Shown here piece by piece: positions 4,010-38,162 of a stretch of 64,000 bases of DNA (positions within the stretch are counted from its first letter, which is position 1; every line of letters starts with the position of its first letter). The stretch is taken from contig CM000150.2 of the NCBI GenBank assembly GCA_000004695.1, positions 1,504,001 to 1,568,000 on the forward strand, given 5' to 3'. The notes below the pieces were generated by a model. The model was not told where the DNA came from. It did not search any database and saw only the letters and a program-made list of their open reading frames with translations. A program made the position numbers and the translations under genes. This stretch comes from Dictyostelium discoideum. Lineage: Eukaryota.

Positions 4010-4041
4010 TTTGATTTTAGAAAGTCTCTTAAAAAAATGAC

Positions 4042-4128
4042 AGACCCCTCAGGGAGTTGAACCCTGGACCAACTGCTAACTTCTAACGTTTTGGAGACAA
4101 TTACAATAAACCACTATGCTAAGGAGTC
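4042..4128 (-). tRNA. tRNA-Trp (anticodon CCA), 87 nt including a ~14-nt intron directly 3' of the anticodon loop.
   Basis: The minus strand reads GACTCCTTAGCATAGTGGTTTATTGTAATTGTCTCCAAAAC..GCAGTTGGTCCAGGGTTCAACTCCCTGAGGGGTCT. The acceptor stem GACTCCT pairs with AGGGGTC through one G-U pair. The T arm is CAGGG-TTCAACT-CCCTG with B box GGTTCAACTCC. The anticodon loop is CTCCAAA (CCA). The internal A box is TAGCATAGTGG. A T-run terminator and an ex-B box lie downstream. Confidence 0.7.
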
Positions 4129-4129
4129 T

Positions 4130-7318: not shown

Positions 7319-7350
7319 TTTGATTTTAGAAAGTTTCTTAAAAAAATGAC

Positions 7351-7437
7351 AGACCCCTCAGGGAGTTGAACCCTGGACCAACTGCTAACTTCTAACGTTT
7401 TGGAGACAATTACAATAAACCACTATGCTAAGGAGTC
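7351..7437 (-). tRNA. tRNA-Trp (CCA) with intron, second copy. It is identical to 4042-4128 and lies inside a duplicated ~210 bp block (3963-4175 equals 7271-7483).
   Basis: The sequence gacccctcagggagttgaaccctggaccaactgctaacttctaacgttttggagacaattacaataaaccactatgctaaggagtc is identical to copy 1, and the flanks, including the ex-B box and the upstream cactttgctaagg(c/a)cctc motif, are conserved. Confidence 0.7.
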
Positions 7438-7924
7438 CTTGAAAAATCAATTGGATGAAACACTTTGCTAAGGCCTCAATTTTATTGGAAAACCCAAATT
7501 AATCAGAAAATTTCCAGATTTTTAACTTTTTAAAGTAAAATAAAAAATAGAAAGAAAATAAGATGAAAATTACAAACAACACCACAAATATTAAGCAACA
7601 CAAATGCCTACAAAAAATAAGCGAAATTGTGGATAAAACTCAAATAAAAAAAACAATTCAAATATGTCATCAACATCAATCACGAACCAGACGATAAAAT
7701 AAAAAAAGATTTAGAAAAAGTTTGGACAAAAAAGATGTTTAATCAAAAGTAATAATACAATTCAAAATTTGAAACAAAAAAAAAAAAAAAAAAAAAAAAA
7801 AAGTTAACTAACCCCTCTTTTAGAGACCCTGTAAAAAACTACAAATAAAATGAGATCAAGCAGGAGAAGCAACTAATAATTGCGTTATCCAATTCAAAAA
7901 AAAAAAAAAAAAAAAAGCCTCATT

Positions 7925-10263: not shown

Positions 10264-11878
10264 TTATGATTCTAATGGTTTAATATCGTTATTAATATTA
10301 ACTTCAATTGAAAAGTCTATAACTAAACTATCATCTTTTAACCAAACTTCTGGTTTTTTTCCAGGTTCTGTTGATTTTATAAAATAATGACAACCAACTG
10401 ATTTTTCTTTATCCATAACTTTTTAAATAATCAAAGAAAAAAAAAAAAAAAAAAAGTTAATATATATTATTAGAAAAAAATAAACAATTATTTCCAATTT
10501 GATTAATTTTAATTAATAACTTACTTGATTTATTTTTAAAAATAAGATTTTTAGATTCATCTTTAAAATTAAGTAAAACAAATTTATAAAATACTTTAAT
10601 TGGATTAATTGAATCAGATTTTAAAAAAAGTGAAGTATATGAACCATCGTCTTTACCTTGTGGATAAATTACCAATTTAAATTTTTTATCATAAATTTTA
10701 AAAGATGGAGAAGTAATTTTTCTATATTTTCTTGATTCGGTTAAATAATTTGAAATTGACCATCTATTTTTATATTTAAGTAAACAACCATTAATAAAAT
10801 ATGAATTAACTTTTGAAACTTTTTCAAATAAATCATCAAATTTAATTCTTTCTTGTTGTTCTTTTTGTTCTTTTTGTTCTTTTTGTTCTTTTTGTTGTGG
10901 TTGTTGATTATCTTTTGGATATAAATCTAATTGAAGATTATTTAATTTTTTATCAATTTTAGATTCAAATTGATAAAATTTATCATAGAGTTGGTCACAT
11001 TTTGATTCAGTTTCAAGTTGTTCAAGTTTATTGATCTTATTTAAAAGATTTTCATATTTGATATTGGTTTCTTTGATTTGTAATGATTGAGATTCAATCA
11101 TTGAACCCATTGCAAGTGTATGATTAATTGAACTAAGATGTTGAGTTAAATTTGATTTTGGGAATCTATTTGATTGTTCACAACCATATATTTTGTATGG
11201 ACAATCGATCATTACCATTTGGCATTGTTTTTCAATGTGTGATTCTAATTGAGATCTCTCCAATTGAACGGTACATCCATTTTCACTGCATTTCACAATA
11301 AACTTTGGACATTCTTTATAATGATTCTCTAATGATCTTGATGTTATACCATCGGTATCACAATATCTACAATATTCTAATCTAAATTCACATTGTTCTT
11401 TTTCATGTTTTTCAACTTGATTTAATCTAATAATTTTATTACATCCAATAAATTTACATTTTATATGTGTAAATTTACATTGTTTTAAATGTTTTTCAAT
11501 TTCACCAATTGTTATAATATCTTTACATCCATTTTCTAAATCTTTGATTTTATTATTATTATTTTTATTTTCATCAATATATTTAAATGAATTTGGACAA
11601 TTAACTTTTATATTTAAAAAATCTTGTTCAATGAATCTATTTCTTGATAGTTCTGAAATTGATTTAACTATACATCTACATATCATACATTCTTTTTTTT
11701 TAAACAATGATTCTGCCCAACATGTTTTGCAAAACCAATGAATTTCTTTACATTGATAAATTTCTTTTTTATATACTGATTCATAACAAATTGAACATGA
11801 ATACTTTTCAATATTTACATCTTCATAAAAAATATCTGTTAAATTATATTGTATAAAATAATGTGTATATTCTGCCAT
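10264..11878 (-). CDS. TRAF-like protein with RING finger, TRAF-type zinc fingers, a coiled coil and a MATH domain. Two exons: 10525-11878 and 10264-10418.
   Basis: N-terminal C3HC4 RING (CSICYESV..CKEIHWFCKTCW..CMICR), then repeated C/H TRAF zinc-finger motifs, a coiled coil (KINKLEQLETESK) and a MATH-like C-terminus. The minus-strand GTAAGT donor at 10524-10519 and the AG at 10420-10419 splice in a final exon, IMDKEKSVGCHYFIKSTEPGKKPEVWLKDDSLVIDFSIEVNINNDIKPLES*, that completes the MATH domain. Confidence 0.75.
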
Positions 11879-12723: not shown

Positions 12724-15586
12724 ATGAATAAAAAGGTATTTTTAAATAACTATTTAAATGAAAGAAAACAATTGAATGGTAATGAAATCAACAATAACAA
12801 CAATAACAACAACAATAACAATTACAACAATAATAACAATAATAATAATCTAAATAAGGATAAGGATAAAGATAAAGATAAAGAAAGAGATAAAGATAGA
12901 GAAAGAATTAAAGAAAGAACTAAAGAAAGAGGTGACAAAGAAAGAGATAGAGATAAAGAAAGAGACAGAGAGAGAAAGAAAGAAAAAGTTGAAAAACCTC
13001 AAGTTGCCGTCTTAAAACAAAGTGCTCAACATGTTAAACAACAAAGATTAAAAGAAAAAGAAAAAGGTAAAGAAAAGGAAAAAGATAAAGAAAAAGATAA
13101 GGAAAAAGATAAAGAAAGAGAAAGAGAAAAAGAAAAAGAAAAAGAAAAGGTAAAAGATAGAGAAAAAGAAAAAGAAAAAGAAAAAGAAAAAGAAAAAGAA
13201 AAGGTAAAAGATAGAGAAAAGGTAAAAGATAGAGAAAAGGAAAAAGAAAAAGAAAAAGAAAGAGACAAGCTCAAACCAAAAGATTCCAAAATTAAAGAAA
13301 GAGATATTGAAAAGGAAAAAGTAAGAGATAGAGAAAAAGAAAGAGAAAAAATTAGAGATAGAGAAAAAGATAAAAATAGTAACAATAATATTATTAAACC
13401 AAAAGAAAAAAAAGATGAAAGTATTGCAAAAACTCAAAAAAATATAACAATTAAAGAAAATGGCAATATAACCAGTAGTAGTAGTATTAGTAATAGTAGT
13501 AGTATTAATAATAATAATAATAATAAAATAATAAATAAGAGTGTTAGTACCAATGGTAATGGTAATAGTAGTAATAGTACAAATAATAATAACAGTAATG
13601 GTAGTAATGGTGTAGATATAAAAAAGAAACCAATTCTTGACTCAAAGAAAAGGGCATTACCATCATCATCATCAAAATCTCAAACTACATCAACTTCAAC
13701 TTCAACCTCAACTTCAAAATTATCAAAACCAATTGTGAAAAAGAAAAAAGATTCAAATTTAAAAAGGATTAAACTTTCAAATGGTGGTGTAGTTACAAAA
13801 TATAAGAGAAAGAAATCAAATAATGATAGTGGTAGCGATGATAGTAGTTATGATAGTAGTGATGATAGTAGCGGTAATGATAGTAGTAGTAGTGGTAGTA
13901 GCAGTAGTAGTGGTAGTGATGACAGCGATAATAGTAGTGATGATGATAGTGATAGCAGTGATGGCGATAGTAGTAGTGATAACGATGATGACAATGACAA
14001 AAATAGTAGTGGAAGTGATGATGACGAAGATGGTGATTCTAGTAGTTTCGATAGTAATTATAGTGGTTCATATGATAGTTTTAGTGACAGTAGCGAATGT
14101 GACGATAGTGATTGTTCATGTGGAAAAAAAAGAAAAAATAAACCCGATAGTAGTAATAGTAAATTAACAAATTTAAAAAAACCAATAACCAATGGTAACA
14201 CCACCGATAATTTAGACAATGGTTTAACAACATCATCAATAGTAGTTGACGATCAACAAAAAATTACAAATGAATATATTGAAAAACATTTAAATTCTGG
14301 TAAAGCGAACCCTGACTATTCTGATATTGCTGTCTTAATTCAAAAATCAAGAAATAAGAAATTTGGTTTCATTTCAAGAAGTAAGTATCATTCAATTTAT
14401 TAATAATATAAAATATATATTAATTAACTTTTTTTTATTATTCAGACTTTTTTATAGAAAGAACAGAGAAAATATTATACGAAATTGATGATATTGATAT
14501 TTGTAATTGTTCAAAAAGTAGTGGATCAGTTTGCGGTGATGATTGTTTAAATAGAGAATCATATGTAGAATGTAATATTGAACATTGTGAATTAGGTAAA
14601 AAATGTACGAATCAAAGATTTCAAAGAAAACAATATTCAAATATTAAACCTGCATTTGTAAGTCATATAATATAATTTTTTTTTTTTTTTTTTTAATAAT
14701 AACATATTAATGTTTATTTTTATTTTTTTATTTTTTTTTTATTTTTTTTTTATTCTAGACAGGTAAAAAAGGATGGGGATTAATTGCAAATGAAGACATT
14801 GAAGAAAAACAATTTATAATGGAATATTGTGGTGAAGTAATTAGTAAACAAACTTGTTTGAGAAGGATGAAAGAGGCAGAGAATGAAAAGTTTTTTTATT
14901 TCCTTACATTAGATTCAAAGGAATGTTTGGATGCAAGTAAGAGGGGTAATTTAGCAAGATTTATGAATCATAGTTGTGATCCAAATTGTGAAACCCAAAA
15001 ATGGACGGTTGGTGGTGAAGTAAAGATTGGAATTTTCGCAATTAAACCAATACCAAAAGGTACTGAATTAACATTTGATTATAATTATGAAAGATTTGGT
15101 GCACAGAAACAAGAATGTTATTGTGGTTCTGTAAATTGTCGTGGTTATTTAGGTCAGAAATCAAAATCATCCACTTCTACAACTCGTCCAAAACAAATCA
15201 CTCGTTGGAAGAATTCAATAGTTTTAAATCATAATCATCATGTTAAATATTTTTTAGGTGAACCAATCATTCCACATTCAAACCCTTCCTCCTCCTCTTC
15301 CTCTAGATCAGTATCAACTCTTTATAATAGTGAATTATCACCAGAGATGGAATTACAATTAATTAATTCAAAAAGAATATTCCTACATAGAAATGTTAGA
15401 AAATTGAAATCTTTTTATTTTAATGTTTTTAATTATTATAGTAGCGGTGGTGGTAGTGGTGGTAATAATAAAAAGTTAATTAATATAACTTCAACTTCAA
15501 CTTCAAATTCATCTTTAAATTCATCTTTAAATTCAAATATAAAATTAAAAAGAAAAAATAAAATTAGTGATATCTTCAATATTTGA
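12724..15586 (+). CDS. SET-domain histone-lysine N-methyltransferase with AWS-SET-postSET architecture (SET2/ASH1/NSD type, H3K36-like). Three exons: 12724-14380, 14446-14657, 14759-15586.
   Basis: Exon 1 is low complexity (KDKE/KEKE, S-rich, D/S-rich). Exon 2 encodes the Cys-rich AWS (CNCSKSSGSVCGDDCLNRESYVECNIEHCELGKKCTNQRF). Exon 3 encodes SET (GWGLIANEDIEEKQFIMEYCGEVI..NLARFMNHSCDPNCETQKW..IGIFAIKPIPKGTELTFDYNYE) and postSET (CYCGSVNCRGYLG). Both introns have GTAAGT donors and AG acceptors that preserve frame. Confidence 0.85.
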
Positions 15587-16753: not shown

Positions 16754-17173
16754 ATGGCCCGTACAAAACAAACCGCACGTAAATCAACTGGTGCTAAAGT
16801 ACCACGTAAACACATTGGTTCTAAACAAGCCCATAAACAAACTCCAGTCTCTTCATCAAGTGGTGGTGTAAAGAAAGTACATCGTTTCAGACCAGGTACT
16901 GTCGCTCTTAGAGAAATCAGAAAATACCAAAAGAGTACCGATCTCTTAATTCGTAAACTCCCATTCCAACGTTTAGTCAGAGAAATCGCACAAGAATTCA
17001 AAACCGATCTTCGTTTCCAATCTGCCGCCATCGGTGCCCTTCAAGAAGCCTCTGAAGCTTACTTGGTTGGTTTATTCGAAGATACCAATTTATGTGCCAT
17101 CCACGCTAAACGTGTTACTATCATGCCAAAAGATATTCACTTAGCCAGACGTATCAGAGGTGAAAGATCATAA
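16754..17173 (+). CDS. Histone H3, the Dictyostelium-type H3 with an extended, divergent N-terminal tail.
   Basis: Translation is [139 protein letters not shown]. The histone fold is essentially canonical H3. The tail keeps K4, K9 and GGVKK (K36) but replaces the canonical AARKS K27 region with [11 protein letters not shown]. Confidence 0.95.
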
Positions 17174-17690: not shown

Positions 17691-22501
<4,811 letters not shown>

Positions 22502-23024
22502 TCAAAACAATAATATCAAAAGCAATATTCAAAATAAAATAATAATAAAAAAAAAAAAAAATAATAATAATAAATAATAAATAATAACAAATAATAATAA
22601 ATAATAATAATAATAATAATAATAAAAATAAAAATAAAAATAAAATCATTTATTTGTGAAAATTAGTAGTATTCACAAGATATATGTTTTATCTGTATAA
22701 AAAAAATGTATAAAAAGTGGGGTGTAATTCCTAACTGTTTTTTTTTTTTTTTCTATTTTTAGAGCGAGAAAAGGTTGTTTTTTAAAATGTTTACTTTTTT
22801 TAATTTTTAAACATCAAATGAAGATTTACTTTATTTTATTTGAAAATATTTTTTAACAACAAGTTTAATTATTTTAATTTTTGTGTTTAAAAAAAAAAAA
22901 AAAAATAAAAAAAAAAAAGAAATAATAAAAAATTATATAATTATAAATTTGGTTAAAAAAAAAAATTATAATTACATCACACAAAAAAAATTATAATTAT
23001 AATCAAAACAAATTAATAAAAAAA

Positions 23025-23435
23025 ATGATTAATAGTTTTGTCTCTACAACTAAAAAAGTTACTACCTCCATCCCAACAAATGATATTTTTCCAATTAGAG
23101 AGGAATATACTGAAGATATTAGGTCAATGCTTCAAAATAATTTAAATCAATTTTTGGAAGTGGTAAAAAAAGAGGTACCAATGTTTTACCTTTATAAAGG
23201 TATTGAAGGTAGAGTTAAGGAAATTGAGTCAATGAATAGAAAATTGGTTACTAAAAATAAACATAGTTGGAAAGATGTTTCTGATTATTGTGGTGTTCAA
23301 ATTATTGTTCATCCTTTTAAAAATATAAAAGAAATCATTCATATGTTAAATCATTTAACAAAAAAACATAATTTCAAAATGTTTGTATTTTATTTAAAAA
23401 TTTATTATTTTATTATCTTATATTTATTTTTTATT

Positions 23436-23479
<44 letters not shown>

Positions 23480-24102
23480 CACAAAGAGTAAAAGAAGAAA
23501 ATATTTTACCAAAAGATTCTACATCATTTGGATATAGGGCAACTCATATTGATTCAATATTTAATGATTTAAAGGTCGAAATTCAAATAAGAACTATTTT
23601 TCAAGATATATGGGGACAATTGAGTCATCAACAATATGAAATTGCAAGATTAAATGGTTATGATAATGCCCATAATTTACCAAGAGATATTAGTCAAATA
23701 TCTTCTCTTTTGGAAATATCTGAAGTTCTTTCAGGTTTATTGGCAAGTAACCACTCTCAACCAATACCAACTTCTAAAGTTGAATCACCAGATCAAATGA
23801 AACTTTTGTTTGCTAAAAAATTTAAGTACGGAGGTCATATGACCAATTGGGAATTTGGAGTTCTTTTTGAAGTTTCAAAACTTGGTGGAATTAATTCACC
23901 ACATGAACTTGAAAAAAAGTGGATTGAATTTTCAAAAAAATTAAATAACCCACCAGAGTCAACGCCAAATGTAATTTTTAAATTTGCTCAATACTTATTT
24001 ATTGGAGAATCCTTTAATCCAAATATTATCACTGATTCAAAAGTATCTTATGAACTCCTTCATAAATTTAAAAATGTTTTGTCGAATATTCCATTAATAT
24101 GA
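23025..24102 (+). CDS. RelA/SpoT-family nucleotidyltransferase (alarmone-synthetase-type) domain protein of about 324 aa, with no HD hydrolase domain. Two exons: 23025-23380, 23487-24102.
   Basis: The spliced product reads ..YKGIEGRVKEIESMNRKLVTK..WKDVSDYCGVQIIVHPF..HNFK-I-VKEENILPKDSTSFGYRATHIDSIFNDLKVEIQIRTIFQDIWGQLSHQQYEIAR. This carries the RelA_SpoT synthetase signatures GRVK..S..K, D-x-x-G-[IV]-[QR]-I-I, PK..GY+S/A.H and E[IV]QIRT..W. The donor is gtttgt at 23381 (phase 2) and the acceptor is AG at 23485-86, removing a T-rich intron. Confidence 0.7.
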
Positions 24103-24261
24103 AAAAAAATAAAAAAAATAAAAATAAATCGTTTTGTCAGTTTTAAAAAAATCTTCAAATCAATTTTCGTTGCTTGTGTTTCGTTAAATTTCAAAAAAAA
24201 AAAATTTTGATTTTTTTTTTTTTTTTTTTTTTTGACAGTGCTCTAGATAAAATATATAAAA

Positions 24262-24973
24262 ATGACAACAAATAAACCATCATTCAGTTACTTTAAAGTT
24301 TTAGTTCTTGGTCAACTTCCAAGATTCACTTTAAATTATTTTGGTACCGATTTTACTGATAATTATGTCGAGTCAATTGATGATGAATTCAGAAAAACCC
24401 TTAAATTTGGTCAATTACCATTATTTGTTGACTCAGATGGTTTCAGATTAACTCAAACAGATGCTATTTGTAAGTTTACCCTTTATATATATTTTTATAC
24501 CTATATATTTAATCTCTAATTTATTTTATTTTTTATTTTTAATTATTTAAAAAAAAAAAAAAAAAAAAAAAGGTAAATACATTGCCGCTAAACATGATTT
24601 CCTTGGAAAATCAATTAAAGAAAGAGCAATCGTTGATGAAACAATCGCTGCAGTTCATGATGATGTTATTATTCCAGGTTATAAAGTTGGTAAAGGTGTT
24701 GAAGATAAAAAAGTTATTGACACAATCATTTCAAGACATTTCACAACTTTTGAAAATGTTTTAGCTGAAAACAAATTCATTGCTGGTGGTGATAACTATA
24801 CTCTTGCTGATTTATATGTTTTTGTTGCTTACCACTATTATAAACATTTAGGACATTCTGAAAAGTTCCAAAATAAATTCCCACATTTGGAAGCTTTACA
24901 AGCTCATTTCGAATCAAATAAAGGTATTGCTGAATATATCAAAAATAGACCAGATTCTGGTAGAGGTATTTAA
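24262..24973 (+). CDS. Glutathione S-transferase-like protein of about 203 aa. Two exons: 24262-24469, 24573-24973.
   Basis: Exon 1 ends ..[23 protein letters not shown], a GST N-domain motif. A GTAAGT donor at 24470 and an AG at 24571-72 join it to a GST C-terminal domain ([67 protein letters not shown]). The ORF-track entry 24582-24764 is an alternate-frame artefact. Confidence 0.7.
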
Positions 24974-29585: not shown

Positions 29586-31463
29586 TTAATAAGAATATGA
29601 AATAGAAGAGGAAGATGATGTGGAACGGGAGGAAGATGATGTGGAGGATGAAGAAGTAAAAGATGGAATGGTTAAACCTAATTTTTTACAATGTTGATTA
29701 CATTTATGTGATTGAAAGAATTTAATTATACCAGGTTTACCAAGGTTACAACTTCCAAATCTTAATGTATCAGTGGAATGAATTGCTGGATCAGTTAATA
29801 AATAACCTTTTGAGGTTTTGACACCTTGAATATCGACTACAATTGCTTTATTTTTTGATTCTTGATATGTCCAATGAGAGAATGTTTGAAGTATTTCAGA
29901 CATTGCATCATCTTTTAACCAACCACAATTACTATTGTATTTTTGATATTCACCATTGATAAATGTTTCAATCCCAAAATACATTGGTTTTTCAGAATGT
30001 TTCATTTGTAAGACTTTTGCAACAGTGAATGTAATTTGATGTTCACTCGAAGTTAATGATAATTGTTTATTAAATTCAAGTGCAAATTTTGCAGCAACAG
30101 TTTGACATTCCATTGATTCAAAATATCTTTTCTTTGAATTTTCTCTACCACCAATATATTTTGATTGTTTAAGAACTACTTTCTTACCATGTTCGTCAAT
30201 TCCTAAATAAGCTAATCTACAAGCACCGTGTGAGAATGGATTTGGAGCAATTTTAATTGAAATGGTAATTTCATTTAATTTCATTTCATAGGATGATGAT
30301 AAACATGTAACAATATCTGATGGCATTTTAAATTTTGTTTGTAACATTTGAATATATGGTAATTCACCAAAATCAATATCCATATTGGTATTAATTTCAA
30401 ATTCACGTTCACTACGTTGTTTACCTGTTGAGCCATCAATGTTGTGACCTAAATATTGTTCAGTCAATACTGATCTTGACACTGAAATACTTTCTTCAAT
30501 TGAAATAAAAATTCTTTCATTCATTTTTGAAGTTTCTTTTGAATCGAATGAATTTATTGATTTCTTATTTCTTGATATTTCTTTAGTTTTTTTATCAAAA
30601 AAATCAATCATTTGACCTGTTTCTTTAAGATTAATATGGCCAAAATAGTAGTTGATATTTAATGAAATTATATCAGTTAATAAATCATCTAATTTAATAC
30701 CATTTGGATCACCACCTGGATAAGAATCAGCCATTGAATGGTATTCAGTACCATGGCAAGGGGCATCAGCGATATGAATTACAACTCTAGTTGAATTTGG
30801 CCTCCATTTCATTGATTTAATTAAATCCATACCTCCAAATACATCTTCAGGACCATCAGCACCACCACCTGCTCTAATTTCAGAAACAAATCTAACAAAT
30901 TCTACAGTGGAACGAGAGAATTGAAAAGTTGAACATCTGTTTGATGCTACATCGAAATCAGTATAACGAATAAAACCAAATTCAATATCTAAAAATGAAT
31001 GTTTTAATTTTAATGCTTCTTGTAATTTTACAATATCACTCTTTATTTGTTCAATATATGGATCCATTGAACCAGTACAATCAACAATAAATAATAAATC
31101 AACACACTCCGATGCTCTAATTGCTTTAAATGTTAATTTAATTTCTTCATTTCTTTTTTCAATTTTTTTTTCTTTTTCTTTTGCAAGTGTTATTGAATCT
31201 TTTGTAGTAGTTGTTTTTTCATCTCTTGGGGTACTACCATAAACCATTCTTAATGCACTTTCATCTGATATATGTGTTTTACTACCACCTGAACTTAAAC
31301 CACTTCTTGATGCATCAGTTTTTAATGATGTTGGCACTTTTCTTGTTCCAAGTGAAGTTTTTGATAATGAATTTGAAATTGAATCCATATCTGAAACATT
31401 AACTCTTCCGGATGGCTTTGTTTTTGATTCTTTTTCAGTTGACAAAACATACTTTGATTCCAT
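29586..31463 (-). CDS. vwkA: von Willebrand factor A domain plus alpha-kinase domain protein (VwkA-type), 625 aa.
   Basis: The vWA signature DLLFIVDCTGSMDPYI is in the N-terminal half. The C-terminal alpha-kinase catalytic domain shows GACRLAYLG..KKVVLKQSKY..ECQTVAAKFALEFN..KPMYFGIETFINGEYQKYNSNCGW..AIVVDIQGVKTSKGYLLTDPAIHS..FGSCNLGKPGIIKFFQSHKCNQHCKKLGL. The architecture matches the described Dictyostelium vWA alpha-kinase. The symbol is given from memory of that architecture and is not verified. Confidence 0.7.
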   Translation of the reverse strand: MESKYVLSTEKESKTKPSGRVNVSDMDSISNSLSKTSLGTRKVPTSLKTDASRSGLSSGGSKTHISDESALRMVYGSTPRDEKTTTTKDSITLAKEKEKKIEKRNEEIKLTFKAIRASECVDLLFIVDCTGSMDPYIEQIKSDIVKLQEALKLKHSFLDIEFGFIRYTDFDVASNRCSTFQFSRSTVEFVRFVSEIRAGGGADGPEDVFGGMDLIKSMKWRPNSTRVVIHIADAPCHGTEYHSMADSYPGGDPNGIKLDDLLTDIISLNINYYFGHINLKETGQMIDFFDKKTKEISRNKKSINSFDSKETSKMNERIFISIEESISVSRSVLTEQYLGHNIDGSTGKQRSEREFEINTNMDIDFGELPYIQMLQTKFKMPSDIVTCLSSSYEMKLNEITISIKIAPNPFSHGACRLAYLGIDEHGKKVVLKQSKYIGGRENSKKRYFESMECQTVAAKFALEFNKQLSLTSSEHQITFTVAKVLQMKHSEKPMYFGIETFINGEYQKYNSNCGWLKDDAMSEILQTFSHWTYQESKNKAIVVDIQGVKTSKGYLLTDPAIHSTDTLRFGSCNLGKPGIIKFFQSHKCNQHCKKLGLTIPSFTSSSSTSSSSRSTSSSSSISYSY

Positions 31464-36788: not shown

Positions 36789-38162
36789 ATGTATCGAATT
36801 TTAAAATCATTTATACTATTATCATTAGTAAATATGTCTTTATCACAAAAGATTGGTAAATTAACACCAGAAGTACATCCTCCAATGACATTCCAAAAAT
36901 GCTCAGAAGGTGGCTCATGTGAAACAATTCAAGGTGAGGTTGTAGTTGATGCAAATTGGAGATGGGTACACTCTGCACAAGGTCAAAACTGTTACACTGG
37001 TAATACTTGGAATCCAACCATTTGTCCAGATGATGAAACATGTGCTGAAAACTGTTATTTGGATGGTGCAAACTATGAAAGTGTCTATGGTGTTACCACT
37101 AGCGAAGATTCAGTTCGTTTGAATTTCGTTACTCAAAGTCAAGGTAAAAACATTGGTTCTCGTTTATTCCTCATGTCAAATGAATCAAATTACCAATTAT
37201 TCCATGTACTTGGTCAAGAATTCACTTTTGATGTTGATGTTTCCAATCTCGATTGTGGTCTCAATGGTGCACTCTACTTAGTCTCAATGGATAGCGATGG
37301 TGGTTCTGCTCGTTTCCCAACAAATGAAGCCGGTGCTAAATATGGTACTGGTTATTGTGATGCCCAATGTCCAAGAGATCTTAAATTTATTAGTGGTTCT
37401 GCAAATGTTGATGGTTGGATTCCATCAACTAATAATCCAAATACTGGATATGGTAATCTTGGTTCATGTTGCGCTGAAATGGATCTTTGGGAAGCAAACA
37501 ATATGGCAACTGCTGTAACTCCACATCCATGTGATACTTCAAGCCAAAGCGTATGTAAGAGTGATTCATGTGGTGGTGCTGCTTCTTCAAATAGATATGG
37601 TGGTATTTGCGATCCAGATGGTTGTGATTACAATCCATACCGTATGGGTAACACCAGTTTCTTTGGTCCAAACAAAATGATTGATACCAACTCTGTAATT
37701 ACTGTTGTAACTCAATTCATTACTGACGATGGTTCATCCGATGGCAAATTAACCTCAATCAAGAGATTGTATGTACAAGATGGTAACGTTATCTCTCAAT
37801 CAGTATCAACCATTGATGGTGTCGAAGGTAATGAAGTCAATGAAGAATTTTGTACTAACCAAAAGAAAGTATTTGGTGATGAAGATTCCTTCACTAAACA
37901 TGGTGGTCTTGCTAAAATGGGTGAAGCCTTAAAGGATGGTATGGTTCTTGTTCTTAGTCTTTGGGATGATTACCAAGCCAACATGTTATGGCTCGATAGT
38001 TCATATCCAACAACTTCATCTCCAACAGATCCAGGTGTTGCTCGTGGATCTTGTCCAACTACCTCTGGTGTTCCATCTAAAGTTGAACAAAATTATCCAA
38101 ATGCATACGTTGTCTACTCTAATATTAAAGTCGGTCCAATCGATTCAACATATAAAAAATAA
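36789..38162 (+). CDS. cbhA: Glycoside hydrolase family 7 cellobiohydrolase (Cel7/CBH I-like), 457 aa, secreted, single exon.
   Basis: A signal peptide is followed by the GH7 catalytic core: [108 protein letters not shown]. The EMDLWE motif holds the catalytic Glu residues. The symbol is a best guess for the Dictyostelium GH7 gene. Confidence 0.85.

Follow-up and report, generated by a model that had tools for sequence, protein, structure and literature searches.

The closest described systems to the gene analyzed here are small alarmone synthetases (SASs), RelA/SpoT homologues (RSHs) with a SYNTH domain and without HD, TGS and ACT domains. RelQ (SAS1/YjbM) and RelP (SAS2/YwaC) are housekeeping (p)ppGpp synthetases of Firmicutes, homotetramers of ~200–230 aa with short C-terminal helices that form the tetramer. 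CapRel, FaRel2 and Tas1 are toxSAS proteins, CapRel (PDB 7ZTB) being a fused toxSAS that acts as a tRNA pyrophosphokinase. In 2011, Atkinson, Tenson and Hauryliuk reported divergent SASs for which no subgroup assignment was possible (“divRel[S]”) in Dictyostelium discoideum and D. purpureum, with the entry “divRel[S], divRel[S], Mesh1[H]” for each of the two species in their supplementary file 5 (PMC3153485). They proposed that divRel[S] was horizontally transferred from bacteria and speculated on extracellular ppGpp signaling; their text is inconsistent on a Dictyostelium small alarmone hydrolase (SAH), while their table has Mesh1 present (PMC3153485). The Dictyostelium proteins were catalogued there without residue-level, structural or domain analysis. 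Here we describe the D. discoideum gene at positions 23025–24102 of a 64,000-nucleotide stretch (contig CM000150.2, positions 1,504,001 to 1,568,000; hereafter the window). The gene is DDB_G0268136, and sequence comparison and structure prediction identify its product as a divergent stand-alone RSH synthetase-type protein with a SYNTH fold at ~aa 30–207.

Dictyostelium is genetically tractable and has a Mesh1-type hydrolase besides two synthetase-like genes, which makes it possible to test directly in this organism whether eukaryotes other than plants produce (p)ppGpp-type alarmones and by which enzyme. DDB_G0268136, publicly known since 2011, offers a good experimental entry to alarmone synthesis in non-plant eukaryotes. 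The gene is not new, and the present finding is a correct re-discovery. What we add is incremental: the clade-wide loss of a donor-site Arg, a C-terminal domain with a remote bacterial counterpart, intron and selection statistics, and a broader set of eukaryotic members of the clade. In the literature searched, we found no functional study of DDB_G0268136 or of ppGpp, Mesh1 or SASs in Dictyostelium.

DDB_G0268136 is a spliced gene with a SYNTH-type product

The region from 22500 to 24700 is extremely A+T rich with small islands of higher GC. An open reading frame (ORF) scan identified two ORFs in different frames, one opening at ATG 23025, the earliest start downstream of an in-frame stop, and the other closing at 24102. 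We tested all GT..AG pairs between the two ORFs for a frame that stays open between 23025 and the stop at 24100–24102, and only two combinations kept the frame, using donor 23381 or donor 23345, both with the acceptor at 23485/6. Donor 23381 gives a 106-nt intron and a 323-aa product that matches end to end, with 100% identity, the NCBI entry [quoted passage not shown], labeled “RelA/SpoT domain-containing protein” in UniProt. The 311-aa product of donor 23345 was rejected because it lacks L108, N116, F117 and K118, which are invariant among the orthologues, and because the 323-aa form matches the annotated protein. A first-pass annotation, made by a model from the letters and ORF translations, had proposed a two-exon gene of about 324 aa; the location and the two-exon structure are borne out, the length is one residue too many, and the four motifs named there (GRVKEIESMNRK, DYCGVQIIV, PKDSTSFGYRATH and EIQIRTIFQDIWGQLSH) are all present in the product. 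The GC content is ~10% in the intron versus 25–33% in the exons. The intron had also been called typical of Dictyostelium: it is real and its position is conserved, but its donor is GTTTGT rather than the usual GTAAGT type. The same GTTTGT donor is kept in D. firmibasis.

The match to RelA/SpoT is far above chance. Pfam PF04607 (RelA_SpoT), the search proposed in that annotation, gave a significant match (E = 1.7e-14; 54.5 bits, with the gathering threshold at 27), covering aa 62–167 and profile positions 1–105 of 113. Searching the PDB sequences with phmmer returned RSH enzymes only, the RelP/RelQ-type SASs at E ~1e-6 and the long Rel proteins more weakly. An AlphaFold2 model of the 323-aa protein, built on an alignment of 58 sequences, has a mean predicted local distance difference test (pLDDT) score of 84.9, and its predicted SYNTH nucleotidyltransferase fold can be superposed on solved RSH synthetases. 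The best 50 Foldseek matches of this model in the PDB are all RSH enzymes (top E = 3e-9), with RelQ/RelP as the nearest. The protein is not of low complexity, and chance similarity within a low-complexity sequence, which had been named as a risk, is ruled out.

Pfam finds RelA_SpoT only, with no HD, TGS or ACT domain detected in the 323-aa protein. The expected SAS architecture without an HD domain is therefore present, and it is extended by an unclassified helical domain of ~115 aa. More specific models do not claim the protein: TIGR00691 (spoT_relA) reaches 26 bits where 499 are required, and the NCBIfam equivalog NF053588 (GTPPhKinYjbM) scores 34.7 bits, below its threshold of 320. Judged by these comparisons, DDB_G0268136 belongs to the RSH SYNTH family and is neither a RelQ/RelP orthologue, a long RSH nor a CapRel-type fused toxSAS. 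It differs from RelQ/RelP in length (323 aa), in being eukaryotic and intron-bearing, in sharing only 17–24% identity with them, in carrying Gln in place of the second adenine-stacking Arg, and in having the ~115-aa helical domain where RelQ/RelP have their short tetramer-forming helices. As a SYNTH-only RSH outside the named subgroups, it fits divRel[S]. For D. discoideum, our searches returned DDB_G0268136 and DDB_G0292546 as the only PF04607 proteins. This count agrees with the two divRel[S] proteins of Atkinson 2011 in this species, one of which we take DDB_G0268136 to be.

The gene is conserved among relatives of D. discoideum. Orthologues share 91% identity in D. cf. discoideum, 86% in D. 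citrinum, 75% in D. dimigraforme, 74% in D. firmibasis and 45% in D. purpureum. We compared the genomic loci of four of these species with that of D. discoideum, five species in all, and the intron lies at the identical codon position and phase (NFK|IV, phase 2) in D. cf. discoideum, D. citrinum, D. firmibasis and D. purpureum, the last having an extra second intron within the DYCGA|A motif. In related species, a chromodomain or histone H3 gene is found upstream, and a glutathione S-transferase (GST) gene and a 775-aa gene downstream. DDB_G0268136 is under purifying selection: Nei-Gojobori ratios of nonsynonymous to synonymous substitution rates (dN/dS) are 0.13–0.24 in species pairs with unsaturated dS, and both halves of the protein are constrained, the C-terminal half at 0.08–0.14 versus 0.13–0.33 for SYNTH. 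The conserved intron, the synteny, the purifying selection and the eukaryotic neighbors all uphold the earlier view of a bona fide host gene rather than contamination.

In D. purpureum, a tail-to-tail inverted duplicate of the gene lies on GL870991.1 (9237–10386, minus strand) with 88% nucleotide identity. It has two frameshifts near the PRELHQISSLLEI region, and its annotated model (P0010, DICPUDRAFT_76642) skips the IRT motif. This duplicate is probably a pseudogene or an assembly error.

The active site is conserved except at position 92

In the structure of Staphylococcus aureus RelP, the adenine is sandwiched by R78 and R112, the phosphates are held by K80, S84, K88 and R91, the ribose is contacted by H190, and D107 and E174 are the Mg2+ ligands (PMC5794853). 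RelSeq forms the adenine sandwich with R241 and R269 and has D264, E323 and Y308 in its site (PMC7983052). The site of FaRel2 consists of R64/R95, K66, S70, K74, D90, E145, Q147 and Y128; the adenine is contacted by R64, G93, R95, E145 and Q147, and R95 can also touch the acceptor adenine (PMC11782079).

Alignment places R63, K65, S69, K73, D87, G90, Y135, H139, E150, Q152, R154, T155 and H166 of the Dictyostelium protein at the equivalent positions. None of the 13 residues varies among six orthologues, and each is at least 90% conserved in the two family alignments, of 58 and of 178 members. Thus the Mg2+ ligands, the RxKx3Sx3K motif and the G-loop Tyr/His are all present; in the larger alignment the Asp87 column holds Asp in 176 of the 178 proteins and the Glu150 column Glu in 177. 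The equivalents of the FaRel2 adenine contacts are likewise all kept in DDB_G0268136 except for R95.

Only position 92, which pairs with R63 in the adenine sandwich and corresponds to R112 of S. aureus RelP, R269 of RelSeq and R95 of FaRel2, departs from this pattern. The D. discoideum complex has Gln there, and D. purpureum has Ala. The first-pass annotation had noticed Gln in place of the Arg of the DxxGxR motif, and alignments to 3l9d, 2be3 and 6fgk confirm it; that Arg had been called catalytic, whereas the solved structures show a residue that stacks on the donor base, the adenine of ATP. Across the alignment 154 of 178 proteins have Arg here, while 15 of the 16 members of the eukaryotic clade carry a non-Arg residue (Q/A/S/D). 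Gln or other non-Arg residues also occur sporadically in bacterial relatives. Because position 92 varies in an otherwise conserved clade, constraint appears to be relaxed at one site rather than lost with the death of the enzyme; the replacement itself seems to be unconstrained, which fits the relaxation of one contact better than a new function of Gln.

A helical C-terminal domain has a remote bacterial counterpart

The AlphaFold2 model shows six helices at ~aa 185–318 with high confidence, and the same helices were obtained when aa 180–323 were modeled alone (pLDDT 77). We found no convincing match for this region (~aa 180–323) among solved structures. The domain is conserved in the dictyostelid orthologues and in the “long” members of the eukaryotic clade. 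In hhalign, its first 88 columns align with the C-terminal portions of a set of 95 bacterial RelA_SpoT proteins 300–380 aa long (probability 92%, E = 6e-7), and the last ~50 residues of the Dictyostelium domain lie outside the alignment. The profile alignment suggests that the C-terminal region is remotely homologous to that of the bacterial proteins, and for the distal helices this homology is only suggested because part of the alignment is a long helix that belongs to the SYNTH domain. We infer that the C-terminal domain is a regulatory or interaction module.

Bacterial proteins of ~320–350 aa with RelA_SpoT and a C-terminal extension, which are the best non-eukaryotic matches, resemble DDB_G0268136 in their two-part layout and length. 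They differ from it in keeping the Arg, share ~20–25% identity with it and are themselves uncharacterized. An example is a 332-aa “GTP pyrophosphokinase” of Enterobacter cloacae (P0023), encoded in E. cloacae and relatives (L005/L006/L007:6001-6999) at the end of a P2/186-like prophage remnant. Its surroundings include a CI repressor, CP76 and an integrase, and it adjoins an AAA_21/DUF4435 gene, a layout that is typical of prophage defense hotspots. The closest solved structures to this protein are RelP/RelQ. PADLOC returned only a generic weak match to the RelA_SpoT-containing candidate PDC-S33 (E = 7e-13), no stronger than the Pfam match, and we rejected it as evidence for a role in defense.

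The eukaryotic sequences form one clade

A profile search of 1.84 billion representative proteins gave 946 matches at E ≤ 1e-3 and only 12 at E ≤ 1e-10. The close set is eukaryote-like and includes DDB_G0292546 (237 aa), proteins of D. firmibasis and Tieghemostelium lacteum, a second D. purpureum copy, a 729-aa EukProt protein and several environmental or transcriptome sequences. The nearest non-eukaryotic relatives follow at E ~1e-11 with 20–25% identity. In a neighbor-joining tree with the 70 nearest bacterial-type proteins, the eukaryotic sequences group together as a single clade in each of the 50 bootstraps; the bacterial sister group and the order within the clade were not resolved in this tree, and the absence of a resolvable bacterial sister agrees with Atkinson 2011.

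One member of the clade comes from a Logan contig (L011; SRR10009857, 858–2267) with a GC content of 50%. This homologue is split by pyrimidine-rich introns, includes the C-terminal domain and retains Arg at the donor site (DYCGIRLVL); the adjacent gene encodes a phosphodiesterase-like HDLDHPG motif (HDxDHPG). We regard the contig as eukaryotic because of the introns and the adjoining phosphodiesterase-like gene, and the clade therefore extends beyond the dictyostelids. Because this GC-balanced member keeps the Arg, the residue was presumably lost inside the eukaryotic clade, after the gene had been acquired.

The paralogues of DDB_G0268136 are short (~200–246 aa). This group comprises DDB_G0292546 and its close relatives (P0177, P0176 and P0032), a D. 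firmibasis protein (P0031) and T. lacteum DLAC_09015 (P0030). They are without the C-terminal domain and have Ser at the position of the missing Arg. Most of them start with a hydrophobic, signal-peptide-like N-terminus (e.g., MNISRLSTGILFYILIYCNAKA), which suggests that the DDB_G0292546-type paralogue is a secreted or lumenal enzyme. Bacterial exported alarmone synthetases have been described (PMC12691689), and the short Dictyostelium paralogue is reminiscent of these.

In the 729-aa EukProt protein (P0028, “gene2007-2470_t”), a SAS-like region and part of the C-terminal domain are joined to an adenosine deaminase of the ADGF type (PF00962, E = 7e-25; PF08451, partial). Such a fusion, if true, would tie the family to adenosine metabolism. 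We set it aside as a functional clue; it is possibly a merged gene model, because both domains are truncated at the junction.

Proposed function and alternative explanations

Based on the conserved residues and the predicted fold, we lean towards the view that DDB_G0268136 has remained active as a Mg2+-dependent pyrophosphokinase, its donor pocket being altered. ATP would be bound in the donor site through R63, K65, S69, K73, D87, E150 and Q152; we propose it as the donor since the two β5 residues that read the adenine, E150 and Q152, are kept. A purine nucleotide stacked on Tyr135 of the G-loop would then accept the β,γ-pyrophosphate at its 3'-OH, giving a (p)ppGpp- or (p)ppApp-type nucleotide that could be degraded by the Mesh1-type hydrolase catalogued in the same genome. 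The loss of the second adenine-stacking Arg would loosen or re-shape the donor pocket without abolishing catalysis, and the C-terminal domain would serve in the regulatory or interaction role considered above.

Several points weigh against this proposal. The missing Arg stacks the ATP adenine in every cited solved RSH donor complex, and its absence could therefore severely reduce the activity. The G-loop is two residues longer than that of RelP/RelQ in the alignment. The acceptor, whether a guanine nucleotide, an adenine nucleotide or tRNA, is not deducible from the sequence or the predicted fold. An old report of ppGpp in Dictyostelium was not reproduced, according to a review cited by Atkinson 2011 (PMC3153485), and no published enzyme assay or transcript data for DDB_G0268136 were found in the literature searched.

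The same observations could mean that the protein is a pseudoenzyme, in which the SYNTH fold and nucleotide binding are kept for a nucleotide sensor or scaffold, pyrophosphate is no longer transferred, and the real function is carried by the C-terminal domain. The loss of a near-universal donor-site Arg fits this explanation, as do the constraint on the C-terminal half, which is at least as strong as that on SYNTH, and the historical difficulty of confirming ppGpp in Dictyostelium. However, D87, E150, the phosphate-binding basic residues and Ser, and the Tyr/His of the G-loop are invariant across the clade, which is unusual for a pseudoenzyme, and the replacement at position 92 is not fixed to one residue and has non-Arg counterparts among bacterial members. 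We consider a pseudoenzyme unlikely.

Alternatively, DDB_G0268136 might be a toxSAS-like or immune-type effector, that is, a pyrophosphokinase that modifies the 3'-CCA end of tRNA or makes (p)ppApp, descended from a solitary bacterial gene of a defense island encoding SYNTH and a C-terminal domain, which, by analogy with fused CapRel, might restrain the enzyme. In line with this, the best non-eukaryotic relatives are the 300–380-aa bacterial proteins with a C-terminal extension and not the ~210-aa RelP/RelQ, hhalign ties the two C-terminal regions together, the E. cloacae relative sits at the edge of a prophage remnant beside the AAA_21/DUF4435 gene, and there are the weak PADLOC matches to PDC-S33. 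Since the FaRel2 Arg equivalent to Q92 touches the acceptor adenine, its loss could also re-tune the choice of acceptor. On the other hand, the toxSAS label, which had been offered earlier alongside SAS, finds no direct support here. CapRel has a pseudo-Zn-finger domain (pZFD) where DDB_G0268136 has the helical C-terminal domain; no fused pZFD was found in the protein, and no antitoxin or immunity gene adjoins it as a partner. No YxxY switch was identified. The toxSAS proteins keep both adenine-stacking arginines while DDB_G0268136 keeps one, and the nearest structures are those of RelQ/RelP. An effector of this type is rather improbable in our view.

A broader scenario, which we regard as speculative and quite improbable, joins these threads. 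A eukaryotic RSH clade, comprising dictyostelids and unidentified soil or transcriptome eukaryotes, would have arisen from one bacterial gene for SYNTH with a C-terminal domain and would have discarded the Arg. Its chemistry might have changed, with the donor placed in another geometry or with a macromolecule, for instance the CCA end of tRNA, as the acceptor, or the protein might be an amoebal stress or immune effector with the helical C-terminal domain as a sensor. The signal-peptide-bearing paralogue DDB_G0292546 might act extracellularly or in the phagosome.

An artefact, either bacterial contamination of the assembly or chance motif likeness in an AT-rich ORF, has nothing but the bacterial flavor of the family in its favor and is excluded by the spliceosomal intron at a conserved position in five species, the Dictyostelium-typical exon/intron composition, the syntenic eukaryotic neighbors, dN/dS far below 1 and the strong Pfam and fold statistics.

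Returning to the active pyrophosphokinase that we favor, the residue-level points, namely the Arg loss, the retention of the other catalytic residues, the C-terminal domain and the secreted-looking paralogue, translate into concrete constructs and predictions.

Features of the window

The coordinates of DDB_G0268136 and of the other features are collected in Table 1.

Table 1. Features of DDB_G0268136 and of other genes, in positions of the window.
Feature	Positions	Strand	Remarks
Exon 1	23025..23380	+	356 nt, aa 1–118 and two bases of codon 119; from ORF and splice enumeration
Exon 1 content	23025..23380	+	N-terminal helix, β1 R63-x-K65, helix S69/K73, β2 D87-Y-C-G90-V-Q92
Intron	23381..23486	+	106 nt, phase 2, GTTTGT...AAAG, 94% A+T, between NFK and IV
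Exon 2	23487..24102	+	616 nt including TGA stop 24100–24102
Exon 2 content	23487..24102	+	G-loop Y135/H139, catalytic strand E150-I-Q152-I-R154-T155, H166, C-terminal helices
Pfam RelA_SpoT match	23208..23631	+	aa 62–167, coding region interrupted by the intron
Full SYNTH fold (predicted)	23112–23751	+	~aa 30–207
Asp87 codon GAT	23283..23285	+	equivalent of Mg2+-coordinating Asp (S. aureus RelP D107, FaRel2 D90)
Gln92 codon CAA	23298..23300	+	position of second adenine-stacking Arg (DxxGxR), from RelP/RelQ alignments
Glu150 codon GAA	23578..23580	+	EIQIRT motif; equivalent of Mg2+-coordinating catalytic Glu (S. aureus RelP E174, RelSeq E323)
C-terminal helical domain (predicted)	23752..24099	+	~aa 208–323, five helices after long helix 185–207
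tRNA-Trp(CCA) genes, two	4041–4129 and 7350–7438	-	3.3 kb apart; 89 nt each, long for tRNA
TRAF/MATH protein	10457–11878	-	ordinary eukaryotic gene
SET-domain protein	14819–15586	+	ordinary eukaryotic gene
Histone H3	16754–17173	+	E = 1.5e-47
ORF ending in a chromodomain, 1257 aa	18728–22501	+	PF00385, E = 5e-14; immediately upstream of DDB_G0268136
GST-like gene	24262–~25050	+	AT-rich intron inside; downstream neighbor
Alpha-kinase with VWA domain	29586–31463	-	ordinary eukaryotic gene
GH7 cellobiohydrolase	36789–38162	+	E = 2e-203

The 1257-aa ORF upstream of DDB_G0268136 is rich in tracts of poly-Q, poly-N and poly-T/S and is syntenic among related species. At the position of the GST-like gene, the syntenic genes of D. 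firmibasis and D. citrinum have GST_N/GST_C matches. A VPS13 C-terminal domain is also encoded within the window.

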